Virus record (IMG/VR): IMGVR_UViG_3300034630_000009
Location: 1 to 64,000 of that record
Length of the DNA: 64,000 nt
Strand: one strand, 5' to 3'
From: a virus
The notes under the pieces are model-generated. The model was not told where the DNA came from. It did not search any database and worked only from the letters and a program-made list of their open reading frames with translations. A program made the position numbers and the translations under genes. Of this stretch, positions 17,619 to 47,214 are shown piece after piece (position 1 is the first letter of the stretch; each line of letters starts with the position of its first letter).

Positions 17619-18626
17619 CTAAGACTTGTTGAGGATGTACAGGCGAGCACGGAACGGTTGCGCGTAAATCACTTCTGACGTAGCACACAGACCAATCTGG
17701 CGATAGGTCATCCCATCGTCCAGGATGAAGGGTGGCATGGTATCGATGTCAGCATAATGGCGCATGATGTTGTTCTGCACTGTGGAGTCCATAAACATTA
17801 GCAGGTCAGCCGTTGCGGGTATACTCACGCCACCAATGCTGGTGATGTTACCGCCGTTCACATCGCGCACAATGTCAGCCCCAAACTCGTTCACCGTAGT
17901 CAGCTTCCGAAGTTGCGGTGATTCGGCGCGATTGGTCAACATTTGCGCTGGGGTGCCATCGTTTGAGTTGTCAGCAAAACGACGTTGCAGCGCGGCTCGG
18001 ATGTCCTCGTCCACGATCGCCGCCGTTGCTTCCGCCGTGAGTCTCGTGTTTTTGCGAAAGTTGGACAACTCGGTTCTGAACCATTCGTAAGCGGTAGCTG
18101 CCGTTGCACCTGTCCCGGTTACGCCGTTGGCACCTGCCGTGACGTTGATCACTTCCACATAAGGGTTGTTGATAAAGCCCGTGAACCCGATCGTCGGGTC
18201 GCCGAACACCGTGCGGATGTGCATCCATTCACGCAATCCTTTTTCCAGTGCGTTGCGATAGCTCTGCACCACATTGGTGCGCGGTAGGAAGGTATTTTTC
18301 TGTGCGGCTTCTTCCGATCGCAGTTCCTGCCACGTCCACTCCGCTGCTAGTACGCCCACCTGGCACTTGTACTCATCCATGTTGATGCCAAAGTTGGCAA
18401 GGGGCAGCGTCGTGGCTTTACCGCCGTAGTTCACAGCACGACCGGTGTAGTCAATCCGGGCGGTGGTGTACTTCAAGGTGCCAAAGGGCAGATCTGAAAT
18501 AGCTTCGTGATACATGCCGTTGTACCCCCACATTTCAGGCCACACCGTTTCTACGAGCTGTGTTTCATACGTCGTCAGCGCTTCGGTCAGGAACTTCCCC
18601 GCCAAAACCACCTCATTCTGAATCAT
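17619..18626 (-). CDS. Major capsid protein (DUF2184-like)
   Basis: WTWQELR, FGDPTIGFTGFINNP, IYAQP motifs; synteny. Confidence 0.85.
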   Translation of the reverse strand: MIQNEVVLAGKFLTEALTTYETQLVETVWPEMWGYNGMYHEAISDLPFGTLKYTTARIDYTGRAVNYGGKATTLPLANFGINMDEYKCQVGVLAAEWTWQELRSEEAAQKNTFLPRTNVVQSYRNALEKGLREWMHIRTVFGDPTIGFTGFINNPYVEVINVTAGANGVTGTGATAATAYEWFRTELSNFRKNTRLTAEATAAIVDEDIRAALQRRFADNSNDGTPAQMLTNRAESPQLRKLTTVNEFGADIVRDVNGGNITSIGGVSIPATADLLMFMDSTVQNNIMRHYADIDTMPPFILDDGMTYRQIGLCATSEVIYAQPFRARLYILNKS

Positions 18627-18679: not shown

Positions 18680-19285
18680 TTACATCACGCTGAAGCCAGT
18701 CGTCGGGGTCACGGTGCCCAAGCGGACTAACACCAAAGAACCAGCAGAGCAGGCTTCATAAGCTCTGGCACCCGGCAGCAATTCGCAGCCCACCTGCGCC
18801 CCAGCCGCCGTGCCTGTAAACCCTTTGCGAATTTGCCCTAATTGGCTACCGCTCAGAGATGCCGTAGCAAAACGATAGGCAATCAAATCACCCGGATTCA
18901 GCGCTTCTTCGGAGTACATGACAATATCGCCCATCGTCATCGTTTCAACCAGTACGTTAGTTAGGGCGGGATAGCCAACTGCGTTTTCAGGGATGGTGCC
19001 CGATGCCTGCAAGCCGCTCTGCTGCTTGAGCAAATCGCGCAGATACAAGCCCCAGCGTTCATTGAAGATGTTGACACCCAGAATCAGGTGAGTGGCATCG
19101 GCGGCTTGCGTTGGTAGCACCGCTTTGCCGTTGACCAGATGCGTGACGCGACCAAAAGGCAGCACACCCGTTTCGCCGTTGGGTGTATTGACGATCGCGC
19201 CATCAAGGCGACGGATGGAAGTATCACCAACCTGTCCTTCCGTAAGCCACTTGTTTTGACGGTAGCCGACAGTGGTTTGAGGCAT
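18680..19285 (-). CDS. Head decoration / cement protein
   Basis: LPFGRV, ILGV, MTMGDIVM motifs; lies between protease and capsid genes. Confidence 0.75.
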   Translation of the reverse strand: MPQTTVGYRQNKWLTEGQVGDTSIRRLDGAIVNTPNGETGVLPFGRVTHLVNGKAVLPTQAADATHLILGVNIFNERWGLYLRDLLKQQSGLQASGTIPENAVGYPALTNVLVETMTMGDIVMYSEEALNPGDLIAYRFATASLSGSQLGQIRKGFTGTAAGAQVGCELLPGARAYEACSAGSLVLVRLGTVTPTTGFSVM

Positions 19286-19291
19286 AAAGCG

Positions 19292-20725
19292 TTACTCCAT
19301 AGAAGATTGAGCGTTGGCACGGATGCGATCGGCACGTTTTTTCTTGGCTACCGCCATTGCCATCTCCGGGTTGCCGCCATCGCTGCGTTGGGCTTGGTTC
19401 AGCAGATCGAGCAGGTTATCAGAGCTATCCTTGCGCGTCACCTCCTTTAACCCAGGCGCGATCGTGTCCCACACCGCGTTGATGTAGTCTGCCGATTTAC
19501 CATCCAGATTGAGGTGCGGCATTTTTTTGGCGATCGCCAGCTTCCGCACGTCCGCCACAGGCAGCTTGTAATCGGGCTGAAAGTCGGGCGCATCTAGTCG
19601 CAGCAAGGGTAGCACCGCATTCCACGCATCGGCACGATTCGAGACCTCAGCCGCGATCGTGTCGGCATCCATGCGGTTCCCTTCAGCAGCATCCAACTTG
19701 GTTTGCAGTTCGACAACTTGCGATTGTAGCCCTGTGGCAGTGCCATCAGCCGCGTCCAGTTTCGCTTGCAGCCCAGTTGTTTTTTGGTTTAGTCCCTCTA
19801 CCGCTGCATCAGCAGAGTCGTAGCCGAGCGTTTTCCAAAGTTCCATAGCGTCCTCATCGGGGTTGTCGTCGCATTCACAGTCTTTTTCTCTGACCGCTTC
19901 AACCAGCCTAGAAAGCTCGTCGTGAAGGTGGGTGTTATCGTCTTTAAGCCAGCCGATCTGACCAATCAGATCCAGTACTTCACCAGCCAGCTTTTCATCT
20001 TCAAGGTTGAAAACTCTGCCACTGGGAAAGGCGATCATGTCGTCTGCGTTCGTATTGACTGATTGTTCCTGCGCGCTCGATCGCTTGCCCAAGTCGTAAA
20101 GCTGCCGTTGCTGAATATCTTTAAAAACTTCTCTCACCGTTTCGCTGTCAGCGTTATAGAGGTCGGTGGGTGCGTCGGTTTGATACCAATACTCAAACTC
20201 ATCAGCCCCATCCACATGGAAGCGGACATCGGAGCCAGCCCGACCACGCGGCACGATCGCCACATGATTCCCATCCCGCCTGATCTGCTCAAACTTCCCA
20301 TCGCCGCGTTGCCTGGTGGCTGTGTCGTACCCGCAACTGGCTTCGGTCGCTGTACCAGAAAGGAGCGCATCCACCGCCTGCTTGTCGGTAACGGTGCCCA
20401 CAAACCCCAGAAAATCGCCATCAATCACGGCATAATGCCCCAGCATCCCGCGCCCGTACTGCATCACGTTGTCCGATCGCACTTTCACGGGCGGATGGGG
20501 ATAGGTGATCGGCTTCATCTTGAAGCTGTCGATCGAGTCCTTGGCAAACAACACTTCAGGCGTGACCACTTCGATCCGTTCGGTGCCGTCCAGGTTGCGG
20601 TAGGACAAATCGCCTGTGCCACCGATACGCAAAAAACAACGCAAAAAGCCCTCCGAAGTCGGTTCTGGCTTCGGAGGGAGGAGAATGGCACCACGATCGC
20701 AGTGAAAGGTTGATTCAGCGGACAT
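19292..20725 (-). CDS. DUF2213 prohead protease/scaffold
   Basis: EGFL, KPITYPHP, SCGY, NHVAIVPRGRAGSDVR; coiled-coil C-terminus. Confidence 0.9.
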   Translation of the reverse strand: MSAESTFHCDRGAILLPPKPEPTSEGFLRCFLRIGGTGDLSYRNLDGTERIEVVTPEVLFAKDSIDSFKMKPITYPHPPVKVRSDNVMQYGRGMLGHYAVIDGDFLGFVGTVTDKQAVDALLSGTATEASCGYDTATRQRGDGKFEQIRRDGNHVAIVPRGRAGSDVRFHVDGADEFEYWYQTDAPTDLYNADSETVREVFKDIQQRQLYDLGKRSSAQEQSVNTNADDMIAFPSGRVFNLEDEKLAGEVLDLIGQIGWLKDDNTHLHDELSRLVEAVREKDCECDDNPDEDAMELWKTLGYDSADAAVEGLNQKTTGLQAKLDAADGTATGLQSQVVELQTKLDAAEGNRMDADTIAAEVSNRADAWNAVLPLLRLDAPDFQPDYKLPVADVRKLAIAKKMPHLNLDGKSADYINAVWDTIAPGLKEVTRKDSSDNLLDLLNQAQRSDGGNPEMAMAVAKKKRADRIRANAQSSME

Positions 20726-20842: not shown

Positions 20843-21085
20843 TCATTGCAACCCAGGCAGGTTGATCGGGTCTTGCGAAAACTTCAGCAGGCTCTCTAGG
20901 GATACGGGAGACAGTTCTTCTGAGGCTGGGTCATCTGTGCGGCTAAGCGCTACAACAGGCGCGTCACTGCCCTGTTCTTTGCCCACTAACACTAACGTCA
21001 CGCCACCCACGTCACCCACAGGCTTGATTTGGTCATCGGGCAGGAAGTCCACGTCAGGGAAGCGATCGCGGTTCTTAATTGGCAT
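20843..21085 (-). CDS. Hypothetical protein (candidate immunity protein)
   Basis: Acidic 80-aa ORF overlapping the upstream gene. Confidence 0.55.
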   Translation of the reverse strand: MPIKNRDRFPDVDFLPDDQIKPVGDVGGVTLVLVGKEQGSDAPVVALSRTDDPASEELSPVSLESLLKFSQDPINLPGLQ

Positions 21086-21371
21086 TGTCGTCTCCTGCTT
21101 TGTCTAGCCCCATAATTGTCTCTAGCTGCCCTGGTTGATCGTAAGGATAAGAGATCTTCAGCCGCTCAGCTTCAGCGATCGATGCCTCGCATTGAGCAAA
21201 GATTTTTTGGATCTGGGGTGGCAGGTTAGCCTCTGTGTCTGCCTTTACGCAGTCGTTGATGAGGCGATCGCGCACAGCATCTCCATTGTCCGGTTCCTTG
21301 CTAATTTGATAGCGGAACAACGGACTACCCATGATCAGCGCCAGCTTCCGGCTCAGTTCAGCTTGCATCAA
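21075..21371 (-). CDS. Hypothetical protein (candidate immunity protein)
   Basis: ATGA overlap with the portal-fusion stop codon. Confidence 0.6.
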   Translation of the reverse strand: MMQAELSRKLALIMGSPLFRYQISKEPDNGDAVRDRLINDCVKADTEANLPPQIQKIFAQCEASIAEAERLKISYPYDQPGQLETIMGLDKAGDDNAN

Positions 21372-24300
21372 AGCGCACCCGTTTTCTTTGCTTTGGTATA
21401 ATCCAACTCATCTTTCTGAATCACGACCTTACTGCGGTTGAGCAGGGTCATAAAGGTCTTCTTTTCGTAGCTTTGATTGAGCGCTACGGCATCATACCCT
21501 TTGATCATAGCAAAATAGCTAATGCCGTTTGTATCGCCCAAATTTAAGCCCATGACGTGTTTGACTGCATCGATTTTGTCACGGAGCGCTTTCAGCTTTT
21601 GCTGTGTTACCTGGCTCGTCTGACCAGGAGCATGGGTTAACCCTGCTGCCTTCAAAGCATCTTCAGTAGACTTGCGAGCGATCGCCGCCCTGTGTCCTTT
21701 GTCGAGTGCTTCCTTTCTGGTTTTGACCTTCTGCCAACTGCCATTTTCATCCTGGTAGTGCCAGTCTTTTTGAGAGTGCCCCATGATCGCACCGAACAAA
21801 TCCTGCTCCGACTTGATCTGAAAATCAAGCTTGCTGCCTTTAGCGGTACTTGCGGCAGAGTAGCTGTGAAGCTCTTCTGCGCCAAAGTTAGTCTGTATTT
21901 TCCCAGTTAATTTGGGTTTGGCTGTACCGAACTCAGCGTCGTTATCGAGCGACGCTTTGGCGTGAGCAGCGTTGTACTTCTGCAAGTCTGCTGCATTCAA
22001 GTTTTGCCCTGCGGATTGTATTCGCTTTTCTTCTGCCTTTTGCAAGACTTGTAATTTTTTCAGCGCGGCTTTGCGCTGGCTTTGGATGGCTGACTGTGTG
22101 GCAACCTTGGCATCCTTGGTCAGAGCCATCTGCATGGTGACGCTGCTGGAGTTGATGTAGTTATGTTTGGCAACGTCATCAAACGCCCGTTTAGCATCTG
22201 CGGTCGCCGTTTTAGAATCGTGCCCCACAAACTTGCCGTTGACGATCGTGCCAGCGTGACCAACATACGTGCCATTCCCGTAGATGCCATTACCTGTAAA
22301 GTAATCGCCCGTTTGGAACTGTTTTAAGAATTGAGTGCGATCGGTGGTGCCTTGATTCACCCCGCGCACCATCAACGTCCCGCCGTCCTGCCATGTCTTA
22401 GTCACGTCAGCACTCGATCCGACCGTTGGCTTACCGTCATATCCGGCAATTTGGTACATCGCCTTGAGATACTTATCCCGCTCACCCGATGCCATTTTGA
22501 CTGTGGCGGCGTGAGTCGCAATAGTATCAACGTGTGTAAAAATGCCCTGCAAGTCGCCTTTGTCGAGAGCGTCATTCAGGTTGTGGAGAGCGTGATCGGT
22601 CGGTGGCGTGATGATGTGATCGACTTCCTGACTGGAAAGCTTTTTGCCACTGACATACAGATCAACATTGTTTGCTTTGGCAAATTTTGCTACGTCTGCT
22701 GATGGTCGATCACTCACACCTGACGGCTCAAAGTGAATCGCAGCAATATCGGACGGTTTCACCCCACCATGCACCTGAGCCTCCATGTAAGCGTTGCCCG
22801 TAGGTGACAGCTTCGGTGCCAGATCGTCAATACTCTTTGCTTTGGCAGCATTTTGGAGGGCGGACTGGTCGTTCTGATCACCCTTCATGTAAGAGGGGTA
22901 GTGCGCGGGTAGCTGGTCGCGATCGTAGCCATGTCGTGTCAGGCTAACCAACGAAGCTGCGTTGGGGTTGTTTACTTCGCTAGCGATGCCTGACTTAAAC
23001 GAATCGGCTCCAGTAAAGCTGGCACGGTCTTTGACATCGGACTTTAGCTTGACCGCGATCGAGCCATACGCTCGCGAGACATCGGCGTGAGACTGTCCAT
23101 TCAGGTCGCTGCTTCCCAGATAGCCATAGATCGGGCGATCACCGGGCTGGGTCGTTTTCGCGTCGTAACCCAGTGTTCTCGCCTCCACTCGGTTCCGTGC
23201 ATCTTGATAGTTCTTGTCTGCCAGGTTAGGGATACTATGTCCCGTGACGTTTAGCTCTGCCGATGTCTTGAAACCGCTGCCCAACACTTTTTCAAGCGTA
23301 TCGGTCGATCCCACTCTCACAAACACATCGGCATCGCTTAGCACTTTCTTTGTGTTTGCTTCAGCATCCTGCACCAGCTTCTTGCCGAAACGTTTCTCCA
23401 GATCGGCGCGCTTACTGGTCAATTCGGTTTGATTGAGCTTGACTGGGTTGGCAGGCTGCGCTGGAGTTGTGCTGGAGATCGGAGTGTTGTTGGACTGAGC
23501 TTTTGAGGTCGATCGCTTGCCAGTCTGTTTTGCTGCCTTCGACTTTGCGGCGGTTTGGGCTGGAGCTGCACCACCGCCCCCGGATGGCAACGGCGTTTTG
23601 CCGCCGTGCTGCGAGTGAGCCGCCGCGTAAGCAGCGTGATCCGGGTGGTTAGACTGCGCGGCTGGATGCGTATGCTTGCCAGTCGTCGCCGCCATTGTGC
23701 CCTGATAAGCCGCGTGCCCTGGATGGTTGGGGTTAGCTGATGGATGCCCACCCGAAACACCTTTGGTGCACTTAGCTCCCGCCTTGATCCAACTCCGACC
23801 GCACGGCGTACCAGCATCTTCACGCCACTCATCGCATTCAAAGCTGTCCGATCGCGCTTCTGGAGACCAAACTGGCTCTGGTGCGTCCAGCCCATTTGCC
23901 CGTTCAAACGGTGAAGCGCCGTCATCTGGTTCTAAGCCCTGCGATCGCAACTCTGCTAGTGACTTGGCTCTGAAGTCAGTCGCCCACTTGGTATCAATTA
24001 GCCCTAGCTGAAGCCAGCGCTCAGATGCCGGGGAGGCAAAACAACGACATGCAACGTGGGCTGGTAGCACAATGTCTTCCAACCGATAAATCTTCTGGTT
24101 ACGGGCGGCGCAAAAAGGACAAAGGCGTGAGTCCAAAGTTGATTGCCAGGTGCCCAGTGACAACCCATTCGCCTGATAGCTAGCGATCGCACTCGCATTG
24201 CTGGCAGCAAGACTCTCAGTACGAGCAATGGCTGTAGCACGAGCTTTTACCACGCCTAACTGCTGGTGCAACAACGACGCTATTTTGTCCGTTCCAAAAC

Positions 24301-27022
24301 CCTGTATCAGCCCTTGCGTGACAATGGTTGATGCTTTGTCTGCAAACGCTTCAGTGTGGTTGCGTAGCCGCGTCATGCCCTCTGTTGCTTGATTCACGAT
24401 CGCGGCTATAGGCACATTCGCCGTTGCCTGTAACTGCTGATTGGCGATCGCTCTGCTCAAGTCATCCGCCAGCGTCACCCCTTGAGCAGCCGCACCCCGC
24501 AACAGGTCTTCAAAGGCTTGCTGGATGTCTTCAGCGCTACGTGTGTTGAGGAGTTGCAGCAGGTCAGACACCTGCAAGAGCAAGACCGCTGCTCGTTCAC
24601 GACCCATGAGAGAGCCGGGTGTCTCCTGGCTGTAACTCCGCAGTATTTGCGCTTCTAACGCCTGGTAGCTGGATTCTAAAGCGCTGTTGACACGCTCGAT
24701 CGCGCTATCCTCTAGTCCCTGGAGCAATTTGTCAGCGCGATCGATAATGCCGACGACTGGGTTTACCGCATCAATACGGCTCGTTCCACCAGTCGTTGTG
24801 GACTTTGGGAGTGTGCGATCGCTGCCTCCATCATCAGAATCAGCCCTGCCGTGACGCTCTTTGATGTCAGCAATTAATTTTCCGTAACGAGGCACCTTAT
24901 ACAAAGGATCGTCGTGAATGGCTTTGCCTGCTTCTGCTGCAAAAGCATTCTTCTGGCTATCGCTCAAGCGATCGTAGATTTGAGCCGAATATTCTAGTAC
25001 CGCTCGATTGTTTTCACCGCCAGCCACCCCTCTCATGCCCTGCCGCAGATTCGCTCCAGCATCCCGTACCTGGTCTGCATCCAACGACTGCTTGCCCCTG
25101 AGTCTACGTTGATCCTGCGTTCTGTCAAGCGCTGCTTCTGTACTGCCATTTGGATCGATTGGATGCAGCAATGCGTTCTTGTAGGCTTTATCACCCGCGT
25201 CGGATAGATCGAGTTTCGCAAGTTCAGCCAAGCGGCTTTTTACTTCAAAACTGCTGTGTCCATTTGCTTCTAGCGTTTCTTTATCACTTTTTGTTTTGGC
25301 AGGTTTAGCTTTAAGGGCAGCAAGTCTCTCTCGCGTGCTAGTCCTTGAACCGCTTTTGTTCTTTGCTGAGCGAGCCTTTGCAGAGTTAGTTTTTACCTTT
25401 GGCAGTTCTTGAGGCGCGATTTCACCCTTGCCACCATGCACTGCAAATCCAGCTTTGTACGCCGCATGATCAGGATGGTCTGATGGTTTAGTGCCTTTCC
25501 ACCCTTTACCACAAGCTGCATCCAGGCGTACTTTATCTAGTCGATCGTCATCGTCATCCTCGTCGTCTTCAAAAACATCACTCAGAGCAGAAACGGTGTC
25601 TTCTGTCTCATTCTCTCCCTCACCTTCTGCCTCTGCCTCCTCGCCCTCCGCCTCTGCTTGCTCTTCTGCCTCCGCTTGCTGCTTCGCCCATAGATCTGGC
25701 TGTAACTGACGCTCGATCGTGTACTCACTGCCAGACCAGGCGCTTTCTCGCACCTCTTCTGGTAGTAGCACCCCTGCTTGGATTGAGGGCACATCTACGC
25801 CTTGCGTCTGGTCTTTGCGGAGCTCTGTTTGCTCTTTCAGGTTGAGGCGAAGTGCCGATCGATAGCTCACACCCCAACTATCAGGCAACCGTCCACCTGT
25901 TGGTCCGTTTTGCGCTAGGAAAGTGAGCCGCAAGAAATCCTCGATCGGCTCTTCAAAAATCTCGGCACGGTAATCACTGACGCAATCCGCCCAGCCGTAC
26001 TTGTCACCTGTTGCTGAGTTGCTCAATGCCGTCTTCTGCGAACTGCCCCAAAGCTGCGAAGGCGGCATTGCAGCAGCAGCAGAAGTATCATCCTTGAGTC
26101 GATCGATCAGCGCATCCAGTCCGCCAAAGTTGCGGCTGATAAAGGTGCCATCTTCCCGATCGGCATCCATTGCCAGCCCACCCAGGCTAGACATCGACAT
26201 CAAAATGGCTTGAAACCGATGGAAGATCTTTTCCTGGTCGCCTGACTGAATCAGTTGCGCCAACCCTTGCAACTTGTAGACAAACTGGTTGTAATCCTGC
26301 ACCATGCGCGTCGAATACTCGATCGCAATCAGGTAGCGCACAAAGCTCTGGAAAAACGTTTGCAGCACTGAATCATGGAAGCCCGATGAACCAATCAGCA
26401 TGTCGCCCCAGAGCCTTTTGCCAGGGAAGCGGAGGACACGCGATCGATGAATCTTGCCGTTTACCTGTTGTCCAGGTAATGCTTCTGTTGCGGGCACGTA
26501 AAGGCTATAAAGTTCAGGGTGCCCTGGTCGTCCTGTTTGCGTTTCAGGATAGATACGCCAGCGATCGACTGGATACAACCAGGAGATTTTACGGATGCGT
26601 CCTTCGTTGACAGGTTCCCAAGGTTCACCACCGTCATCGATGCCAATAATCACAAAGCCGTCACCGTCCAGCCGTCCAGCGATCGCGGCTTCACGCACCA
26701 TGCTTCGCAGCTTCAAATCTTCGCTGTACTGCACCGCTTTGGCAGGGATACCTTTGCGTCCCTTACCGATCGTCACCTCTAGCCAGTTGTTAGCAGTAGC
26801 AGCTTTGGGCAGCAGATCCACCACTTTCTCGCAGATTTTGCTCTTACGGTAGAGCGCTTGCAGTTCGACTCGCGAGAGCGGTGAGAAGTTGAGATTGATG
26901 TTGTGCTCTAAATACTTGTCGCGTCCCTGTTGCCCTAATCCTGTCGCACGGTTGCCTAGCATCGCCAGGGCATTGAGGGCAACACCATCATTGCGTATTT
27001 CAGTAATCGCCGAATCGGTCAT
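21368..27022 (-). CDS. Portal (DUF1073-like) + MuF/SPP1 gp7 minor head domain + DUF3626-like + ART-like fusion
   Basis: IHRSRVLRF portal motif; IARTES..DSRLCPFC..PAHVACRC (MuF); RPIYGYL..TGADS..YMEAQVHGGV; VRGV..GIYGNGTY..GYDAV. Confidence 0.85.
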   Translation of the reverse strand: MTDSAITEIRNDGVALNALAMLGNRATGLGQQGRDKYLEHNINLNFSPLSRVELQALYRKSKICEKVVDLLPKAATANNWLEVTIGKGRKGIPAKAVQYSEDLKLRSMVREAAIAGRLDGDGFVIIGIDDGGEPWEPVNEGRIRKISWLYPVDRWRIYPETQTGRPGHPELYSLYVPATEALPGQQVNGKIHRSRVLRFPGKRLWGDMLIGSSGFHDSVLQTFFQSFVRYLIAIEYSTRMVQDYNQFVYKLQGLAQLIQSGDQEKIFHRFQAILMSMSSLGGLAMDADREDGTFISRNFGGLDALIDRLKDDTSAAAAMPPSQLWGSSQKTALSNSATGDKYGWADCVSDYRAEIFEEPIEDFLRLTFLAQNGPTGGRLPDSWGVSYRSALRLNLKEQTELRKDQTQGVDVPSIQAGVLLPEEVRESAWSGSEYTIERQLQPDLWAKQQAEAEEQAEAEGEEAEAEGEGENETEDTVSALSDVFEDDEDDDDDRLDKVRLDAACGKGWKGTKPSDHPDHAAYKAGFAVHGGKGEIAPQELPKVKTNSAKARSAKNKSGSRTSTRERLAALKAKPAKTKSDKETLEANGHSSFEVKSRLAELAKLDLSDAGDKAYKNALLHPIDPNGSTEAALDRTQDQRRLRGKQSLDADQVRDAGANLRQGMRGVAGGENNRAVLEYSAQIYDRLSDSQKNAFAAEAGKAIHDDPLYKVPRYGKLIADIKERHGRADSDDGGSDRTLPKSTTTGGTSRIDAVNPVVGIIDRADKLLQGLEDSAIERVNSALESSYQALEAQILRSYSQETPGSLMGRERAAVLLLQVSDLLQLLNTRSAEDIQQAFEDLLRGAAAQGVTLADDLSRAIANQQLQATANVPIAAIVNQATEGMTRLRNHTEAFADKASTIVTQGLIQGFGTDKIASLLHQQLGVVKARATAIARTESLAASNASAIASYQANGLSLGTWQSTLDSRLCPFCAARNQKIYRLEDIVLPAHVACRCFASPASERWLQLGLIDTKWATDFRAKSLAELRSQGLEPDDGASPFERANGLDAPEPVWSPEARSDSFECDEWREDAGTPCGRSWIKAGAKCTKGVSGGHPSANPNHPGHAAYQGTMAATTGKHTHPAAQSNHPDHAAYAAAHSQHGGKTPLPSGGGGAAPAQTAAKSKAAKQTGKRSTSKAQSNNTPISSTTPAQPANPVKLNQTELTSKRADLEKRFGKKLVQDAEANTKKVLSDADVFVRVGSTDTLEKVLGSGFKTSAELNVTGHSIPNLADKNYQDARNRVEARTLGYDAKTTQPGDRPIYGYLGSSDLNGQSHADVSRAYGSIAVKLKSDVKDRASFTGADSFKSGIASEVNNPNAASLVSLTRHGYDRDQLPAHYPSYMKGDQNDQSALQNAAKAKSIDDLAPKLSPTGNAYMEAQVHGGVKPSDIAAIHFEPSGVSDRPSADVAKFAKANNVDLYVSGKKLSSQEVDHIITPPTDHALHNLNDALDKGDLQGIFTHVDTIATHAATVKMASGERDKYLKAMYQIAGYDGKPTVGSSADVTKTWQDGGTLMVRGVNQGTTDRTQFLKQFQTGDYFTGNGIYGNGTYVGHAGTIVNGKFVGHDSKTATADAKRAFDDVAKHNYINSSSVTMQMALTKDAKVATQSAIQSQRKAALKKLQVLQKAEEKRIQSAGQNLNAADLQKYNAAHAKASLDNDAEFGTAKPKLTGKIQTNFGAEELHSYSAASTAKGSKLDFQIKSEQDLFGAIMGHSQKDWHYQDENGSWQKVKTRKEALDKGHRAAIARKSTEDALKAAGLTHAPGQTSQVTQQKLKALRDKIDAVKHVMGLNLGDTNGISYFAMIKGYDAVALNQSYEKKTFMTLLNRSKVVIQKDELDYTKAKKTGAL

Positions 27023-27474: not shown

Positions 27475-28782
27475 TTACCATTCTCCTACCCAGTTGCCGC
27501 TAAGCTGACTCTTAATCAAGGGAGACAGCGCATAACGTGCGCTGTCGATCGCGTGATTGTGTTTATCGACAATGGCTGGCAGAATGTCGCCCGCAGCATT
27601 TGTCTTGTACCGATACAACCTGCATTCTTCAGCAAAATGCGTGCAGCGCTGATGTACTACTATCTTGTCAAAATTCCTGAGAAAAGCAATCCCGTCCTCT
27701 ACCGAGCCTGCCCACTTATCGGCGGCAACCAAGTAGGGTATACCAGGACGATCGCGCTTTTGCTGCGAGACATGGCTAATCGATTCTGGTCGTGAGTTAT
27801 CGGCACGGACTGTGTGTTTTTCAATCTCTGGGAGGTCACGCATCCAGCGATCGGCAGTCTGGTCTAACTCTAGCTGTAACGCCCAGGATTCGTACTCTAC
27901 CCACAAACATTGATCATAAATCCAGAGCTTCACGGCTGCGGTCGGGTCAGCGGCAAAGCCCCAGTCGGCTCCAAAGTAGGGACCATCCCAGTCGCTACCT
28001 GGTACAAATTCATCCAGCCGCCACTTGTCGCCAAAGATTTGGAGCTGCGATTTGATGTTGTAGCCACCCTGCCAGACGTGTTGGTAATAATCAGTGTCGC
28101 GCTGACGGTCAAGTGCCATCTCTGCCAGTGATTCAGCAGGTAGCAGCGGATTCTGGTCGTAGTTCACTGAGACAACGATCGCGCCTTCTGGTACACCTGT
28201 TTCGCCACGAAAGAAATGATCAACAGCATCAGTGGGTTGATCGGGGTTCCAGGTAAACCAGATCTCCGAACCAGGGGTGCGAATGGTAGGGCGGAGGAGA
28301 GTGAGCGATCGGGCGCTCAAGTTCTGCGCTTCTTCGACCCAGGCAAGACCGAATCCTTCCAATGATTTGATGGAATCGGCTGTGTGGTCTTGCATCCCTT
28401 GAAAAATGCAAATGCCGTTGCCGCCCTTGCGCCTGATTTCAGTAGTAAGAATGGTAAACAGGTGCCTCACTCCCATCTCTTGAATTTTCTTCTCCAGTAG
28501 CGCTTTAGCGGAGAATTTGAGCGATTTTTGAATCTCACGAATACAGACCACTCGCAGATCTGGTTCTGCCACCATGCGCTGTACCGCTTTTTCAGCAAAG
28601 TGATGGGACTTACCCGCACTACGCCCCCCGTAAGCTGCCTTGTAGCGTGATGACTCCTTGAAAGGCAACGCCCAGTCTGGAATCTGAAGTTGTAGGTGAA
28701 TAGGCTGCGATCGCGGCTTCACAGGCGGCAACCACTTATTCAGTCGCTTCTCTCTCCGCTCTAGCCGCTCTAAGCCTTTCAT
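27475..28782 (-). CDS. terL: Terminase large subunit (PBSX family)
   Basis: GGRSAGKS Walker A, WVEEA Walker B, TWNP, GADWG, NHAIDSARY. Confidence 0.97.
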   Translation of the reverse strand: MKGLERLERREKRLNKWLPPVKPRSQPIHLQLQIPDWALPFKESSRYKAAYGGRSAGKSHHFAEKAVQRMVAEPDLRVVCIREIQKSLKFSAKALLEKKIQEMGVRHLFTILTTEIRRKGGNGICIFQGMQDHTADSIKSLEGFGLAWVEEAQNLSARSLTLLRPTIRTPGSEIWFTWNPDQPTDAVDHFFRGETGVPEGAIVVSVNYDQNPLLPAESLAEMALDRQRDTDYYQHVWQGGYNIKSQLQIFGDKWRLDEFVPGSDWDGPYFGADWGFAADPTAAVKLWIYDQCLWVEYESWALQLELDQTADRWMRDLPEIEKHTVRADNSRPESISHVSQQKRDRPGIPYLVAADKWAGSVEDGIAFLRNFDKIVVHQRCTHFAEECRLYRYKTNAAGDILPAIVDKHNHAIDSARYALSPLIKSQLSGNWVGEW

Positions 28783-37009: not shown

Positions 37010-38947
37010 CTACCTAAGGTCTAAACCATTCTTCTGTACTAAGGCAATAACTTCATTGCTTGGAGTGGCAAAACTGACATTTGAAAAACCGCCGTTCTCG
37101 TTAAGCCATGCAGATTTATTCACACCGATCATTTCACCTTGCTGATTAAATAATGGACCACCGGAGTTGCCATACCGCAAAGCGATCTTCGCTTTGATGT
37201 CAGCACCCCTCAAACCAAGAATGTACCCTTGGTTTATTTTTGCCTTGTTGGCGGGATTGCCAATTGAGCAAACTTTCTCGTTAGGCTGAACAGCCTTAGC
37301 CGCCAAACTTACAACAGCTAGCGACTGAGCGGTAACTACTTTTACAATTGCAAGATCTCGCAATTGATTAAAAGCAACTACAGTGCCCTGGAAATTCTGC
37401 CCTGAAGCCAAACGGATATAGATTTTATTTTTCCTGTCCGCGATTGCTTCTTTCACTACGTGGTGATTAGTGACGATTAAGCCATCACTGGAAATCACGC
37501 TACCTGAACCAATCTCATAACCTGCATAAATTTGAGCAAATGCGGGGTTGTTCGTTATACATACTGACTGATAGCCGCTTTCATGCGAGACTGACGCGAC
37601 TTTCTGCTTTTCCACTTTAGAACACACTTGGATTGTATAGTCCAGGATCGATGGATACTTGCCTTGCGGGGTGCTGCTGTTTTTGTTGCTAGCGCTGCCT
37701 GAGTACCAAAAAGAAGCCGTCGATCGACAAGCTTCAAAGCTACTCTCTCCGGCTTTACGCGCTCGTTTAAACTCCTGTGTGAGTTTGCAGGTAGCAATCT
37801 TTTCCTGATGATCCGGGCTGCCAAGAAACTGCTGAGCCGTAAGCTGTTGCCCTAAACACTCCTGTGACCAGGAAGGCACATTGGCAGGCATAATCTGATA
37901 TTTACCCAAGGCACCCGAATCAGCATTAGTAGTCGCATAATCACCGCCCGATTCTTGATTGGCGATCGCCTTGATGACTGGATTGCTACTACCTGCCGAT
38001 CGTGCCGTCGCACCGACAACCGCCATCTCCAAATAGCCGCGCTGGGGTGGAATATATTTGCCGCCCACTTTTTGACCCCAGTGCAAATGCGGTCCGGTTG
38101 AATTGCCCGTGTTGCCAGAAAGTGCGAAGACTGAGCCTGTTTTATGGCTACCAGGATCGCACTGGGATAAATGTGCAGCGAGAAAGCTATAAAGCTGCCC
38201 AGAGGGTTTGATCACGGCATAGGTGCCTGCTGCGTTACCCTCAGATTCAGAGTGGCATTCTACCGTGCCTGACATCGGCATTTTGATGGCAGTACCCACA
38301 GGCAAAGCAACATCGGCACCTTGATGATTAGTAGAACCGATGCCGCCTGGACTGGAACGCAAGCCGAAGCCGCTGGTTACAGCGTAGCTGCCAATTTTTT
38401 GCCCTTGTTGCACGACTGAAGTGTCGATTATTTCATCGCCTTCCTGCAAGGGCAACTCATCTAGCTTGCTGTCGTGCATCGGCACCAATCCAGAGACAGG
38501 AAGGATGGCGTGCAGAATGATTTTCGCCCAATCTGTAGGGGACGCGCCTTTAACCAATTGAGCCGCCATCAAAATGGCAAGGCACACCCAAGGGGCAATG
38601 AGGTGAAACCCTAGCGTGTTGATGTAGAGCGATTCTTGTACGTCGCCTGAAACATCGTTGAGTTTGCGTTTGATTCCTTTCTCTACGCGGTTAAGCTTTA
38701 ACTCAAAGAAATAATCCCAAGCGTCTTTCGGATCTGGCTTGTCTTTGGGCTGACTGCTCGACCGCTTAAGACTTGTTTCGATGCCATCCAAACGATCGTT
38801 GATTTTGGATAACGCTGCTGCTAGGTCATTGCTAACAGCCCCACCTGACTGGTACTCAGCAACATCGCTATCACTAGCAAATTTGCCTTTATGTCTGCCG
38901 CTGGTATGCCTATAGCGATTAACGTCTGGATCAAACTCAATAGCCAT
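37010..38947 (-). CDS. Membrane-anchored M23 peptidase + lysozyme-like + trypsin-like protease fusion
   Basis: HQGAD / GNTGNSTGPHLH (M23); QESGG..ALGKYQIMP; TNHHVV, DLAIVKV, GNSGGPL. Confidence 0.9.
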   Translation of the reverse strand: MAIEFDPDVNRYRHTSGRHKGKFASDSDVAEYQSGGAVSNDLAAALSKINDRLDGIETSLKRSSSQPKDKPDPKDAWDYFFELKLNRVEKGIKRKLNDVSGDVQESLYINTLGFHLIAPWVCLAILMAAQLVKGASPTDWAKIILHAILPVSGLVPMHDSKLDELPLQEGDEIIDTSVVQQGQKIGSYAVTSGFGLRSSPGGIGSTNHQGADVALPVGTAIKMPMSGTVECHSESEGNAAGTYAVIKPSGQLYSFLAAHLSQCDPGSHKTGSVFALSGNTGNSTGPHLHWGQKVGGKYIPPQRGYLEMAVVGATARSAGSSNPVIKAIANQESGGDYATTNADSGALGKYQIMPANVPSWSQECLGQQLTAQQFLGSPDHQEKIATCKLTQEFKRARKAGESSFEACRSTASFWYSGSASNKNSSTPQGKYPSILDYTIQVCSKVEKQKVASVSHESGYQSVCITNNPAFAQIYAGYEIGSGSVISSDGLIVTNHHVVKEAIADRKNKIYIRLASGQNFQGTVVAFNQLRDLAIVKVVTAQSLAVVSLAAKAVQPNEKVCSIGNPANKAKINQGYILGLRGADIKAKIALRYGNSGGPLFNQQGEMIGVNKSAWLNENGGFSNVSFATPSNEVIALVQKNGLDLR

Positions 38948-45473: not shown

Positions 45474-47057
45474 TCAAGCCTCCACTGCTAAGGCGATCGC
45501 ACTTTCTACCAGATCCCAATCACTAGCAGGGTAAAGATTGATGGGTCGCACTTCACCGTTGATGATGCCGCCTCGCTGTTGAGGGCTAGAGCCGTGACGG
45601 TTGCGGTACATGCGGGCGGCTTGAATGCCTGCTTGTTGGATCTGGAAGGGAGAGAGCAATCTGCCATTGAGCTTGGCGTAGTCAGAGACAGTGAGCGGGT
45701 CAGGTTCGATGATGGGTCTGGTGGATGTGATGTCCTTCGTCAGGTCTTCCAGGTGCATCAATTGCACAGCGCGGGACAATTGACCCGTGAGGATATTTTT
45801 GAGCGTGGAGCCTTCGGGTAGTGCCTCAATCTCGGTCGCGGTGCGCGTCGCTTGTGCGATGCGATCGAGCACCAGCAGCTTTGGATCAAGCGCGGCGAGT
45901 GGGGGCGTTGGGGTTGAAGGTGGGGTTGCGACCGCTGGGGTCACGTCCACCGTAGTGGTCGCTGGCTCCAAAAAGGTTTCTGTCTCAGCCGGGGCGATCA
46001 GAGCTTCACTCTCGCTGGCAGCGATCGTCTTCTTGCCCAGTTGGTTGAGCGCTTGGTGGAGGGTGAGATTTTTCAGTGCGCCTTCAAGCTGGTCACGTCC
46101 TTCCCAAAGTTGCATGGCACGTTGGGCTTTACGCTCTTGGATGCCGCGTTGTTTGAGAAACGGTAGCCATTCGCCGTACTTACATACCTCTCGTTTGAGC
46201 AAGAGCTTTTCACCCAGTTCGAGGTAGAGCAGTAGGGCAGACTTGCCCGATCGCACGGCGACAGTTTCCGCTTCGACAGCACGCAGATAGAGTTCGCTGA
46301 TCTGATCGTCCAGGGAGAGGGCAGCGAGTTGAGGCAACAGACCCACTGTGGCGGTTAACTTTTGGGCTGGGTCAGATTTGGTGGTCATCGACGCTGCCAG
46401 GTAGGCAAGGGCGCGGGGTGTCCAGACAGTAAGGGTGTGAGCCTGATGCGAAAGACCGAGTTTGGTGCGGAGCGTTTTGGGTACTTTGCGCGTCTCCACG
46501 CCTAGCGTTTGCAGTGTTTCAGTGTGACGACGCTGGCAACCATACACAATGTGCAGCTCGACTTCGAGCCAGTCAGCGACGCCCTGGACGCTAGTTACTA
46601 AGTTGCCTTGCCATTTGACGAAGGGATGCGCGGGTTTGACCTGGAGGAGCGATCGCAGGAGAGCCAGGTCGGTTTGGAGGGGGGTGAGAGTAGGGGATGA
46701 GGGAGGAAGGGGTTTTAGTTGGGGGGCTTTGCCGTTAAGCTTCTGCTTGGCTTCGGAGAAGGCTTTGACCAACTTGAGCTTGCATTGCACTACTTGAGGT
46801 GTGTTGCGGCTCAGGGTCATCACGAAAAACGATTGATCTTCGTTGAGGAGGGCGTAACGCTCAGGACGACCGCCCTTACTACCTTCAAGGGGTTTCTCCG
46901 TTTCAAACGGAACAACCCCAAATGCTTGCTCTATCTGTACTTGGTGTTTCTGAATTGTTTCAAGGAAGTTGCTGTGATCAACGCCTAAACTTTCGGCAAT
47001 CAAACGGGAATCAACGACTAGGATGCTATCGTGTTCTGCGACTGATAAATTAGACAT
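45474..47057 (-). CDS. Rha-family antirepressor with DUF3102-like and further domains
   Basis: VVDSRLIAESLG..GGRPE.YALLNEDQ..MTLSRNT..KLKLVKAF; LGEKL..YGEWLPFL. Confidence 0.85.
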   Translation of the reverse strand: MSNLSVAEHDSILVVDSRLIAESLGVDHSNFLETIQKHQVQIEQAFGVVPFETEKPLEGSKGGRPERYALLNEDQSFFVMTLSRNTPQVVQCKLKLVKAFSEAKQKLNGKAPQLKPLPPSSPTLTPLQTDLALLRSLLQVKPAHPFVKWQGNLVTSVQGVADWLEVELHIVYGCQRRHTETLQTLGVETRKVPKTLRTKLGLSHQAHTLTVWTPRALAYLAASMTTKSDPAQKLTATVGLLPQLAALSLDDQISELYLRAVEAETVAVRSGKSALLLYLELGEKLLLKREVCKYGEWLPFLKQRGIQERKAQRAMQLWEGRDQLEGALKNLTLHQALNQLGKKTIAASESEALIAPAETETFLEPATTTVDVTPAVATPPSTPTPPLAALDPKLLVLDRIAQATRTATEIEALPEGSTLKNILTGQLSRAVQLMHLEDLTKDITSTRPIIEPDPLTVSDYAKLNGRLLSPFQIQQAGIQAARMYRNRHGSSPQQRGGIINGEVRPINLYPASDWDLVESAIALAVEA

Positions 47058-47214
47058 GGTTCTCCTTAGTGATATTGGGTGGACTAGGGCGATCGCAGCT
47101 TTGACCGGGTGCGATCGCTTCAAACTTTGAGCGGCACACTAATCAAATCCGTCATAGGTTGTTGTGACGGATTTGAGGTTATCTTTAGAAGAAGGACATA
47201 CAGGGCGATCGTTG

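Follow-up and report, generated by a model that had tools for sequence, protein, structure and literature searches.

Why should a phage encode its portal, a MuF minor head protein and two enzyme-like domains as a single chain, and how might such cargo be released from the portal that carries it? These questions are raised by IMG/VR virus record IMGVR_UViG_3300034630_000009, of which we analyzed positions 1 to 64,000 (referred to here as the window; coordinates are those of this 64,000-nucleotide stretch, and every feature given with them lies on its minus strand). According to open reading frame (ORF) listing and translation, a single frame at 21368-27022 is open over 1,884 codons from an ATG start (the fusion, or P0001). 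An earlier, sequence-only reading of the window (the original prediction) had described an 1,884-amino-acid ORF joining a portal, an acidic linker, a small domain, a MuF domain and a DUF3626-like domain, and this architecture was borne out by ORF listing, translation, Pfam and PHROGs; the strings RPIYGYL, YMEAQVHG, GIYGNGTY and GYDAV, quoted from it at the time, are all present in the translation, as is the acidic linker. We conclude that this is a single genuine gene of a siphovirus-like prophage. The explanation that we favor, and that we hold to be somewhat better than evenly probable as a whole, is that it encodes a portal-anchored cargo protein whose linkers would be cut in the head and whose cargo would be injected, with the neighboring small protein orf80 as a guard. 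What had been observed originally is confirmed by our analysis, and the interpretation placed on it is partly supported.

The N-terminal 448 residues (25679-27022) form the portal domain. Phage_portal_3 (PF06381) matches residues 53 to 409 over nearly the full length of its profile (positions 2 to 355 of 357; E = 1.2e-37; 129.9 bits versus a cutoff of 33.8), the PHROGs portal family phrog_146 matches residues 10 to 532 (E = 1.2e-62), and the gene lies beside the terminase, which together identify a portal of the PF06381 type. It is 64 to 80% identical to the portals of three related fusions described below (P0002, P0003 and P0005) and of two Myxacorys loci (L004 and L005). The acidic linker that follows (residues 449 to 498; 25529-25678) is rich in E, A and D, ends in DDDDDD and is weakly conserved across relatives. 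Between it and the MuF module lie a short segment rich in Cys and His, a linker rich in Lys and a small domain of about 150 residues (residues 579 to 729; 24836-25288) with no assigned family, for which Pfam at E ≤ 10 gave no match and the top Atlas score, 0.77, is under any useful level. This small domain is 60 to 67% identical to the C-terminal 150 amino acids of two otherwise unrelated proteins of 813 and 954 amino acids without a Pfam family (P0158 and P0159), and the closest relatives of the fusion carry an InPase domain (PF18823) at its position; sequence comparison thus points to a mobile module that here stands in place of InPase. The MuF (SPP1 gp7-like) minor head module (residues 755 to 1050; 23873-24760) is recognized above cutoff both by Phage_Mu_F (PF04233; residues 899 to 995; E = 4.7e-13; 50.3 bits versus 29.6) and by TIGR01641 of NCBIfam (residues 900 to 998; 53.2 bits versus 39.65), and PHROGs places the minor head protein family phrog_115 at residues 822 to 1002. 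The MuF region is 48 to 71% identical in P0002 (residues 731 to 1146), P0004 (731 to 1087) and P0005 (746 to 1092). Scans of the fusion with Pfam, PHROGs and NCBIfam revealed no embedded processing peptidase, zincin-like or other.

The remainder of the chain is a cargo cassette of two domains, A and B (residues 1189 to 1884). Domain A (residues 1189 to 1478; 22589-23458) belongs to DUF3626 (PF12294; residues 1285 to 1469; 31.5 bits versus a cutoff of 27), a family also found in P0002 to P0006 and in P0012, in some of them slightly below the cutoff. Its AlphaFold2 model, built from a 30-row alignment, has a predicted local distance difference test (pLDDT) score of 90.5, and the only significant PDB matches of this model in Foldseek were to SopF (7dn9_A, E = 8.3e-6; 7dn8_A, E = 1.9e-5; probability 1.00; target TM score 0.50 to 0.51), with the next match at E = 0.18. 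SopF is the characterized DUF3626 protein, an ADP-ribosyltransferase (ART) with an I-Y-E triad (PMC6682159, PMC10333799). On the strength of the model, domain A is predicted to have the SopF-family (DUF3626) ART fold, in agreement with what the original prediction had presupposed for it. R1296 (22/22 sequences), Y1412 (24/24) and E1414 (24/24) are invariant in our alignment of the domain (A2); I1298 (19/22) and Y1319 (20/22) accompany E1414, a likeness to the SopF triad judged by conservation in the alignment rather than by superposition of residues. Sequence searches of the PDB with the cassette, with profiles A2 and A3 and with P0086 never reached SopF or any other ART; all that they returned was one weak match to WWE (E = 0.82) and matches of coiled-coil or low-complexity type such as RsgI and CHMP1.

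Domain B (residues 1479 to 1884) is likewise modeled with confidence (pLDDT 91.5) and is interrupted by an insertion. Its N-terminal part (residues 1479 to 1642; 22097-22588) contains R1553 and the motif Y1581-G-x-G-x-Y1586, and its C-terminal part (residues 1824 to 1884; 21371-21553) contains D1844, within GYDA, and N1862-R1863. All of these residues are invariant among the relatives aligned (26/26 for R1553, Y1581 and Y1586; 27/27 for D1844, N1862 and R1863). The insertion of ∼180 residues (residues 1643 to 1823; 21554-22096) is modeled as two helical hairpins around a beta-rich subdomain; it varies across relatives and is lost or substituted in P0011 to P0014. In its beta-rich part, at 21662-21817 (residues ∼1736 to 1787), we noticed a WWE-like string, DWHYQDENGSWQKV. 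A WWE domain was rejected as a reading of this segment, the match to RNF146 having an E value of only 0.82 and no WWE domain being among the Foldseek matches listed. A Foldseek search of BFVD with the domain B model gave nine matches at E ≤ 1e-3, all of them uncharacterized phage proteins.

To place the fusion among its relatives, we ran a length-restricted search, which yielded 15 proteins of 1,036 to 3,297 amino acids, the fusion itself included. Four of these (P0002 to P0005, from JGI, Logan and ENA assemblies) combine portal_3, MuF and DUF3626 in one chain; P0003, for example, has 1,755 amino acids and is 60% identical to the fusion over residues 731 to 1875. The same fusion in four metagenomic relatives from other assemblies argues that no assembly error has merged separate genes, the outcome that would have undone the original prediction. 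Ten further proteins (P0006 to P0015) have Portal_Mu joined to the same C-terminal 700 residues at ∼50% identity. Because the cassette joins or follows Portal_Mu in these proteins and in loci L006 to L012, with or without InPase, the portal-cargo fusion has arisen on two portal types, portal_3 and Portal_Mu. Elsewhere the modules are split. In four Nostoc/Desmonostoc prophage loci (ORFs were listed for all four, and Pfam was run on L006), a terminase and a Portal_Mu-InPase protein are followed by a separate cassette gene of 881 to 886 amino acids, and Nodularia phages encode the portal, a 533-amino-acid protein and a 625-amino-acid DUF3626 protein separately. Phage E217 has the order gp19 (portal_3 plus InPase), gp20 (MuF), gp23 (DUF2213), gp24 (cement) and gp25 (capsid), and the C-terminal extension of the portal in the two Myxacorys loci resembles, by reading of the sequence, the InPase of the relatives. 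These arrangements suggest that the fusion arose by the joining of neighboring head-module genes, namely, the portal (with or without a further domain), MuF and the cargo. A library-wide phmmer search for the cassette found 788 proteins at E ≤ 1e-3, many of them stand-alone proteins of 800 to 950 amino acids and others large multidomain proteins; no match to the ORF was found by megablast in the phage collection, and the scan of viral_contigs gave no relative. We also observed that stand-alone cassettes (L006:9515-12175 and L001:7999-9876) have a conserved N-terminal domain of their own, ∼120 to 160 amino acids long, before a Cys motif discussed below. This domain is absent from the portal fusions, as though covalent fusion had replaced a docking domain.

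If the cargo is to leave the portal, the chain has to be cut, and the module junctions carry a motif that could mark the sites. Translation and alignment place RLDKVRLDA, CGKGW and HPDHAAY at junction 1 (residues 494 to 522; 25457-25543), RADS and GGTSRIDA at junction 2 (residues 726 to 752; 24767-24847), and RSDS, REDA, C1063..C1074-G-x-x-W-I..C1085 and two HPxHAAY repeats at junction 3 (residues 1057 to 1132; 23627-23854). The R-x-D motifs that the original prediction had located in the fusion are all where it placed them (RND at residue 10, RLDKVRLDA at 494 to 502, RADS at 726, RIDA at 749, RSDS at 1057 and REDA at 1067), as are the CGxxW (504 and 1074) and HPxHAAY (516, 1100 and 1126) elements that it had seen at the start of the effector-like sections; HPxHAAY is confined to P0001 to P0003. 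The abundance of the same motif claimed for the DUF2213 protein (477 amino acids; 19292-20725; PF09979, E = 4e-26; phrog_530, “head maturation protease,” E = 8.6e-58) also holds, with RMDA at residue 351, RADA at 364, RLDA at 376, RKDS at 431 and RSDG at 447. We counted seven occurrences of R-x-D-[AGS] in this protein versus 0.74 expected (0 of 2,000 shuffles), five of them in its C-terminal third, and eight in the fusion versus 2.1 expected (P ∼ 0.001). The narrower motif R-x-D-[AS] is absent from the 1,570 domain residues of the fusion, despite their 87 R and 115 D, and all five of its sites fall within the 308 linker residues (0.26 expected; 0 of 5,000 shuffles), where the linker limits were drawn after the sites had been seen and a tolerance of 3 residues is needed for site 726 to fall in a linker. 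These linkers hold just 12 Arg, of which 5 are inside the motif.

The closest relatives keep the motif at the same junctions amid otherwise divergent linkers, some with H for R. At junction 1, R-x-D occupies the same alignment column in P0002, P0004, P0005 and Myxacorys L004 and L005, with H-T-D in P0003; at junction 2, GGTSR(I/T)D is conserved in P0001 to P0004, and RADS (726) falls exactly where P0158 and P0159, which end in the small domain, have their natural C terminus. The fusions to Mu-type portals are nearly devoid of R-x-D-[AGS], with none in 6 of 10. The pattern exceeds chance, and part of it is shared by the closest relatives; for a chain that would be processed in the head, the foremost candidate cleavage site is R-x-D-[AS]. 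As a separate observation, the capsid proteins of the Myxacorys loci (L004:7523-8452 and L005:9459-10388) start with MTTFRTDS, that is, with R-x-D-S at residues 5 to 8, a start that the window capsid protein lacks.

A small downstream gene may supply the cassette with a partner. orf80 (20843-21085), a protein of 80 amino acids of no known family, is a small conserved companion of the cassette and a candidate inhibitor or immunity protein. By tblastn, a homologue lies within ∼300 bp downstream of the cassette in 8/8 cassette-bearing cyanobacterial or cyanophage loci (L001 and L006 to L012), on the cassette strand in seven of them; cyanobacterial prophages and the Nodularia phage alike keep it directly behind the DUF3626 cassette. 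The predicted complex of orf80 with the cassette scored 0.72, a value reached by 58/80 solved complexes and by 2/110 mismatched pairs, and the best control scored 0.00. At least 68% of contacts are shared between runs, and orf80 has a pLDDT of at least 77. The predicted interface includes cassette residues 111 to 112, 130 to 131 and 221 to 222, which adjoin the invariant Y1299 and Y1412/E1414 as well as Y1319, and the orf80 tail is predicted to lie on residues beside the invariant Y/E of domain A. This is a model computed from alignments of our own making, which counts against it; it supports rather than shows binding of orf80 to the presumed active site of the SopF-like domain. MuF toxins are described as being trailed by small putative immunity ORFs (PMC5576092), and the position of orf80 fits theirs: two ORFs of fewer than 150 amino acids, orf98 and orf80, directly follow the fusion. 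orf98 (21075-21371) overlaps the stop codon of the fusion, has no family in Pfam or PHROGs and has one weak relative, in L009 (34% identity; E = 1.6e-7).

In the explanation that we favor, the portal part would build a dodecameric portal from which the C-terminal 1,400 residues point into the procapsid, so that each head would contain 12 copies of MuF, of the 150-residue domain and of the two-enzyme cassette, consisting of the SopF-like ART and a second conserved, enzyme-like domain with R, Y and D. The flexible linkers would probably be cut during head maturation, with the DUF2213 prohead protease, whose gene lies 0.6 kb downstream, as the likeliest enzyme. The ART Alt of phage T4 is trimmed by the T4 prohead protease. 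The freed cargo would then accompany the DNA out of the head at infection and use NAD+ to modify host targets; before packaging, orf80 may cover the SopF-like active site and protect the producer cell. That cargo is loaded into the head and then injected has already been proposed, in general terms, for MuF toxins and for polyvalent proteins (PMC5512222, PMC5576092), and our reading agrees with this. A bolder version, unlikely in its entirety, would see here a cyanobacterial prophage lineage that uses its portal as a stoichiometric loader, in which DUF2213 cuts R-x-D-[AS], 12 copies are injected, the Cys-rich leader discussed below serves as a head tag, orf80 represents a new family of ART inhibitors and SopF itself descends from phage cargo.

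Several points weigh against R-x-D-[AS] as the site of a DUF2213 protease. P0003 has H in place of R at junction 1, as do P0002 and P0005 at junction 3. Because neither E217 (no enrichment in gp19, gp20, gp23 or gp25) nor the Nodularia phage (no such motif in its portal, gp017 or gp019) displays the pattern, R-x-D is not general for DUF2213 phages; the first 65 residues of the E217 capsid protein, which are not seen, do not end in R-x-D, and the window capsid protein has no conserved R-x-D site. The C-terminal region of the DUF2213 scaffold is conserved throughout, which makes conservation of the motif there uninformative. It is only by PHROG names that DUF2213 proteins are called proteases, and the homologue in Pa193, gp24, is termed a scaffolding protein by the authors, who detected it by liquid chromatography-mass spectrometry among five ORFs in virions (PMC11456595). 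The literature that we searched, judged by title and abstract, contained no cleavage rule for DUF2213, and no cleavage site is given in the portions available to us of the E217, Pam3 and Pa193 papers. There is also another way to account for two of the sites. CGxxW proved to be part of a wider motif without a Pfam family, C-x2-G-x2-C-G-x2-C-[IV]-x5-C, which occurs in 51 of the 159 proteins collected, fused or free, and always before a linker and cargo; the window copy (23768-23836; residues 1063 to 1085) has W for the third Cys, and further proteins with the motif include P0016, P0018 and P0050. Since this Cys motif often follows “DFAA” before the cargo, as in stand-alone homologues, the R-x-D sites at junctions 1 and 3 may belong to a leader rather than to a cleavage site: RLDAACG and REDAGTPCG, which directly precede the window version of the Cys motif, would be degenerate copies of a cargo leader, “(L/I)-D-F-A-A/S” plus a 4-Cys knuckle, perhaps for docking or metal binding, and processing would follow another rule. 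The loss of R at some junctions and the lack of enrichment in E217 and the Nodularia phage are as this alternative would have it. We nevertheless regard it as possible but rather doubtful, in view of sites 726 and 749, which lie at module ends and not beside the Cys motif, of the excess of the same motif in the scaffold part of the neighboring DUF2213 protein and of the share of linker Arg that sits in it.

The nature of domain B is less settled. The original prediction of a second ART-like domain stood insofar as a conserved, confidently folding domain exists; its ART nature was confirmed by none of Pfam, Foldseek and hhalign, and the following results count against it. Pfam at E ≤ 10 gave no match on residues 1470 to 1884, including PF18760 (ART-PolyVal), and nothing credible on the small domain, junction 3 or domain B; Foldseek found no PDB match at E ≤ 1e-3 despite the high pLDDT; hhalign found nothing between domains B and A and only two short motif matches, at 2 to 4% probability, between domain B and the ART-PolyVal alignment; and a search of the genome for PF18760 at E ≤ 1e-5 came back empty. 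That domain B is instead an enzyme or a binding module whose fold is absent from the PDB and Pfam is accordingly a serious possibility, to which we give a little less than even weight. What speaks for the ART reading is the order of the invariant residues: R1553, Y1581/Y1586 and D1844 follow, in sequence, the H-Y-D order of ART-PolyVal, whose H, Y and D belong to strands 1, 2 and 5, with R replacing H. The H-Y-D triad is given for the ARTs of polyvalent proteins by Iyer et al. (PMC5512222), and the R, YGxGxY, GYD order also matches the strings “YHG,” “GxGFYF” and “GYDG” in bona fide PF18760 matches. Domain B further resembles those matches in the order of secondary structure elements and in the insertion site, by our reading, and its Atlas score for PF18760 is 0.86, which serves as a lead only; the distant homologues P0103 and P0109 match PF18760 at 25.6 and 21.4 bits, below the cutoff of 31.2. 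Turning to the chain as a whole, it could also stay uncleaved, its 1,400-residue extension being tethered in the head as a structural or DNA-organizing element or as a plug that is not injected. In favor of this stand the E217 portal, which has 765 amino acids with a fused InPase and was modeled only over residues 97 to 528, the available part of the paper being silent on removal of the rest (PMC10329688), and the polyvalent proteins of the N4 vRNAP type, which are packaged unprocessed (PMC5512222). Twelve 150-kDa tails with two catalytic-looking domains and a predicted inhibitor would, however, make little sense without a substrate, the cassette is a free-standing gene in relatives, and the linkers carry a nonrandom motif; we consider retention of the intact chain quite improbable. 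In E217 gp19 (L075), the InPase domain lies at residues 635 to 753, outside the modeled part. That the long ORF is an artifact of misassembly, or the product of a decaying prophage that has lost stop codons, is hardly credible. The one Logan contig that covers the whole ORF (run X1; 0 differences) may come from the source sample, and run X2 offers three identical 151-base pieces, none bridging a module junction, but relatives of the same architecture come from other sources (P0002, P0003 and P0005), and the frame is open throughout with its candidate catalytic residues invariant.

The genes around the fusion form a head module. The large terminase (TerL; 27475-28782; PF04466 plus PF17288) is the upstream neighbor, 450 bp away, and beyond the DUF2213 gene follow a cement protein of the E217 gp24/Pam3 gp6 family (18680-19285; PF22758), the major capsid protein (17619-18626; PF09950) and, further along the same stretch, a tape measure protein of 1,399 amino acids. 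The DNA belongs to a 158.5-kb contig within a 6.9-Mb genome and is therefore that of a prophage. The closest relatives of the window proteins come from cyanophages and from the genomes of cyanobacteria (Myxacorys, Nostoc, Stenomitos and Leptolyngbyaceae), indicating that the host is probably a cyanobacterium. A 645-amino-acid protein (37010-38947) with PHROG matches to metallo-endopeptidase and peptidase and a 549-amino-acid protein (45474-47123) with matches of the Rha/antirepressor type probably serve prophage lysis and regulation. A tRNA scan of the window found none, and no RNA run is among the sequencing runs listed as carrying the stretch.

The kind of protein described here is known, and the fusion is an extreme case of the way in which phages load the head with enzymes that modify the host. 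Effectors fused to portal or MuF proteins, as well as ARTs packaged in heads, were proposed earlier (PMC5512222, PMC9503650); both effector domains joined to MuF and portal proteins and an InPase joined to a portal, BcepF1.124, have been described (PMC5512222). Polyvalent proteins are those that combine several unrelated effector-type domains in one chain, are encoded with the portal-terminase module and are predicted to be packaged and injected (PMC5512222). With its small domain and domains A and B, the fusion has at least two such domains at a packaging locus and in this respect falls within the class; the zincin-like metallopeptidase that is the commonest hub domain of the class, frequent but not obligatory, was not found in it. 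Unlike the polyvalent proteins of Iyer et al., it unites portal, MuF and two cargo domains in one chain, and its cargo ART is of the DUF3626/SopF family. DUF3626 is absent from the main text of PMC5512222 and from the 2022 survey PMC9503650, which does not name SopF either, and we did not find it in phage papers in the literature searched; the supplements of PMC5512222 and PMC5576092 may hold such fusions. Among the 191 MuF toxins of Jamet and colleagues, 14% are putative ARTs (PMC5576092). These toxins share with the fusion a MuF domain followed by a variable toxin-like C terminus, a prophage setting and small downstream putative immunity ORFs (PMC5576092), but their muf gene follows a portal gene of its own standing and encodes an N-terminal MuF, whereas here MuF is internal and joined to the portal, and the cargo is a two-domain cassette that elsewhere occurs as a free gene or, with no MuF, on Mu-type portals. 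The fusion would thus act like a MuF toxin without having the architecture by which these are defined. The head modules of E217 and Pa193 match that of the window in their Pfam families and in the order of these, i.e., portal_3 (plus InPase), MuF, DUF2213, PF22758 and PF09950 (PMC10329688, PMC11456595); in E217, however, portal-InPase and MuF are separate genes, and neither an ART cassette nor R-x-D enrichment is present. A tblastn search of phages with the window capsid protein gave no match, its similarity to that of E217 being too low. SopF, a Salmonella type III secretion system effector (PDB 7DN8 and 7DN9), shares its Pfam family and fold with domain A at 15 to 16% identity. It enters animal cells through that secretion system and requires host ARF GTPases for activation, whereas domain A, if delivered, would reach a bacterium from the head of a phage and has no evident partner of that kind. 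T4 Alt, a head-packaged ART injected with the DNA (PMC5512222), provides a functional model for the cargo, although it falls in the R-S-E Alt/VIP2 clade and is made separately rather than as a portal fusion.

What looks new is the four-module single chain, the use of a SopF-family ART as phage cargo, and the orf80 partner, the Cys leader and the candidate R-x-D rule. A cargo-portal fusion would set the dose to 12 copies in each virion and secure placement of the cargo in the head, and with it the loading and release of injected phage proteins could be studied in a clean natural system. For the DUF2213 family of prohead proteases it would provide a candidate cleavage rule that is concrete and cheap to test, and it names orf80 as a candidate cognate inhibitor. 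The conserved Cys-knuckle leader, in turn, may mark head cargo in many uncharacterized phage proteins. Finally, these findings would place SopF-family ARTs, a family described in the literature that we searched only for the Salmonella effector, in the heads of phages.

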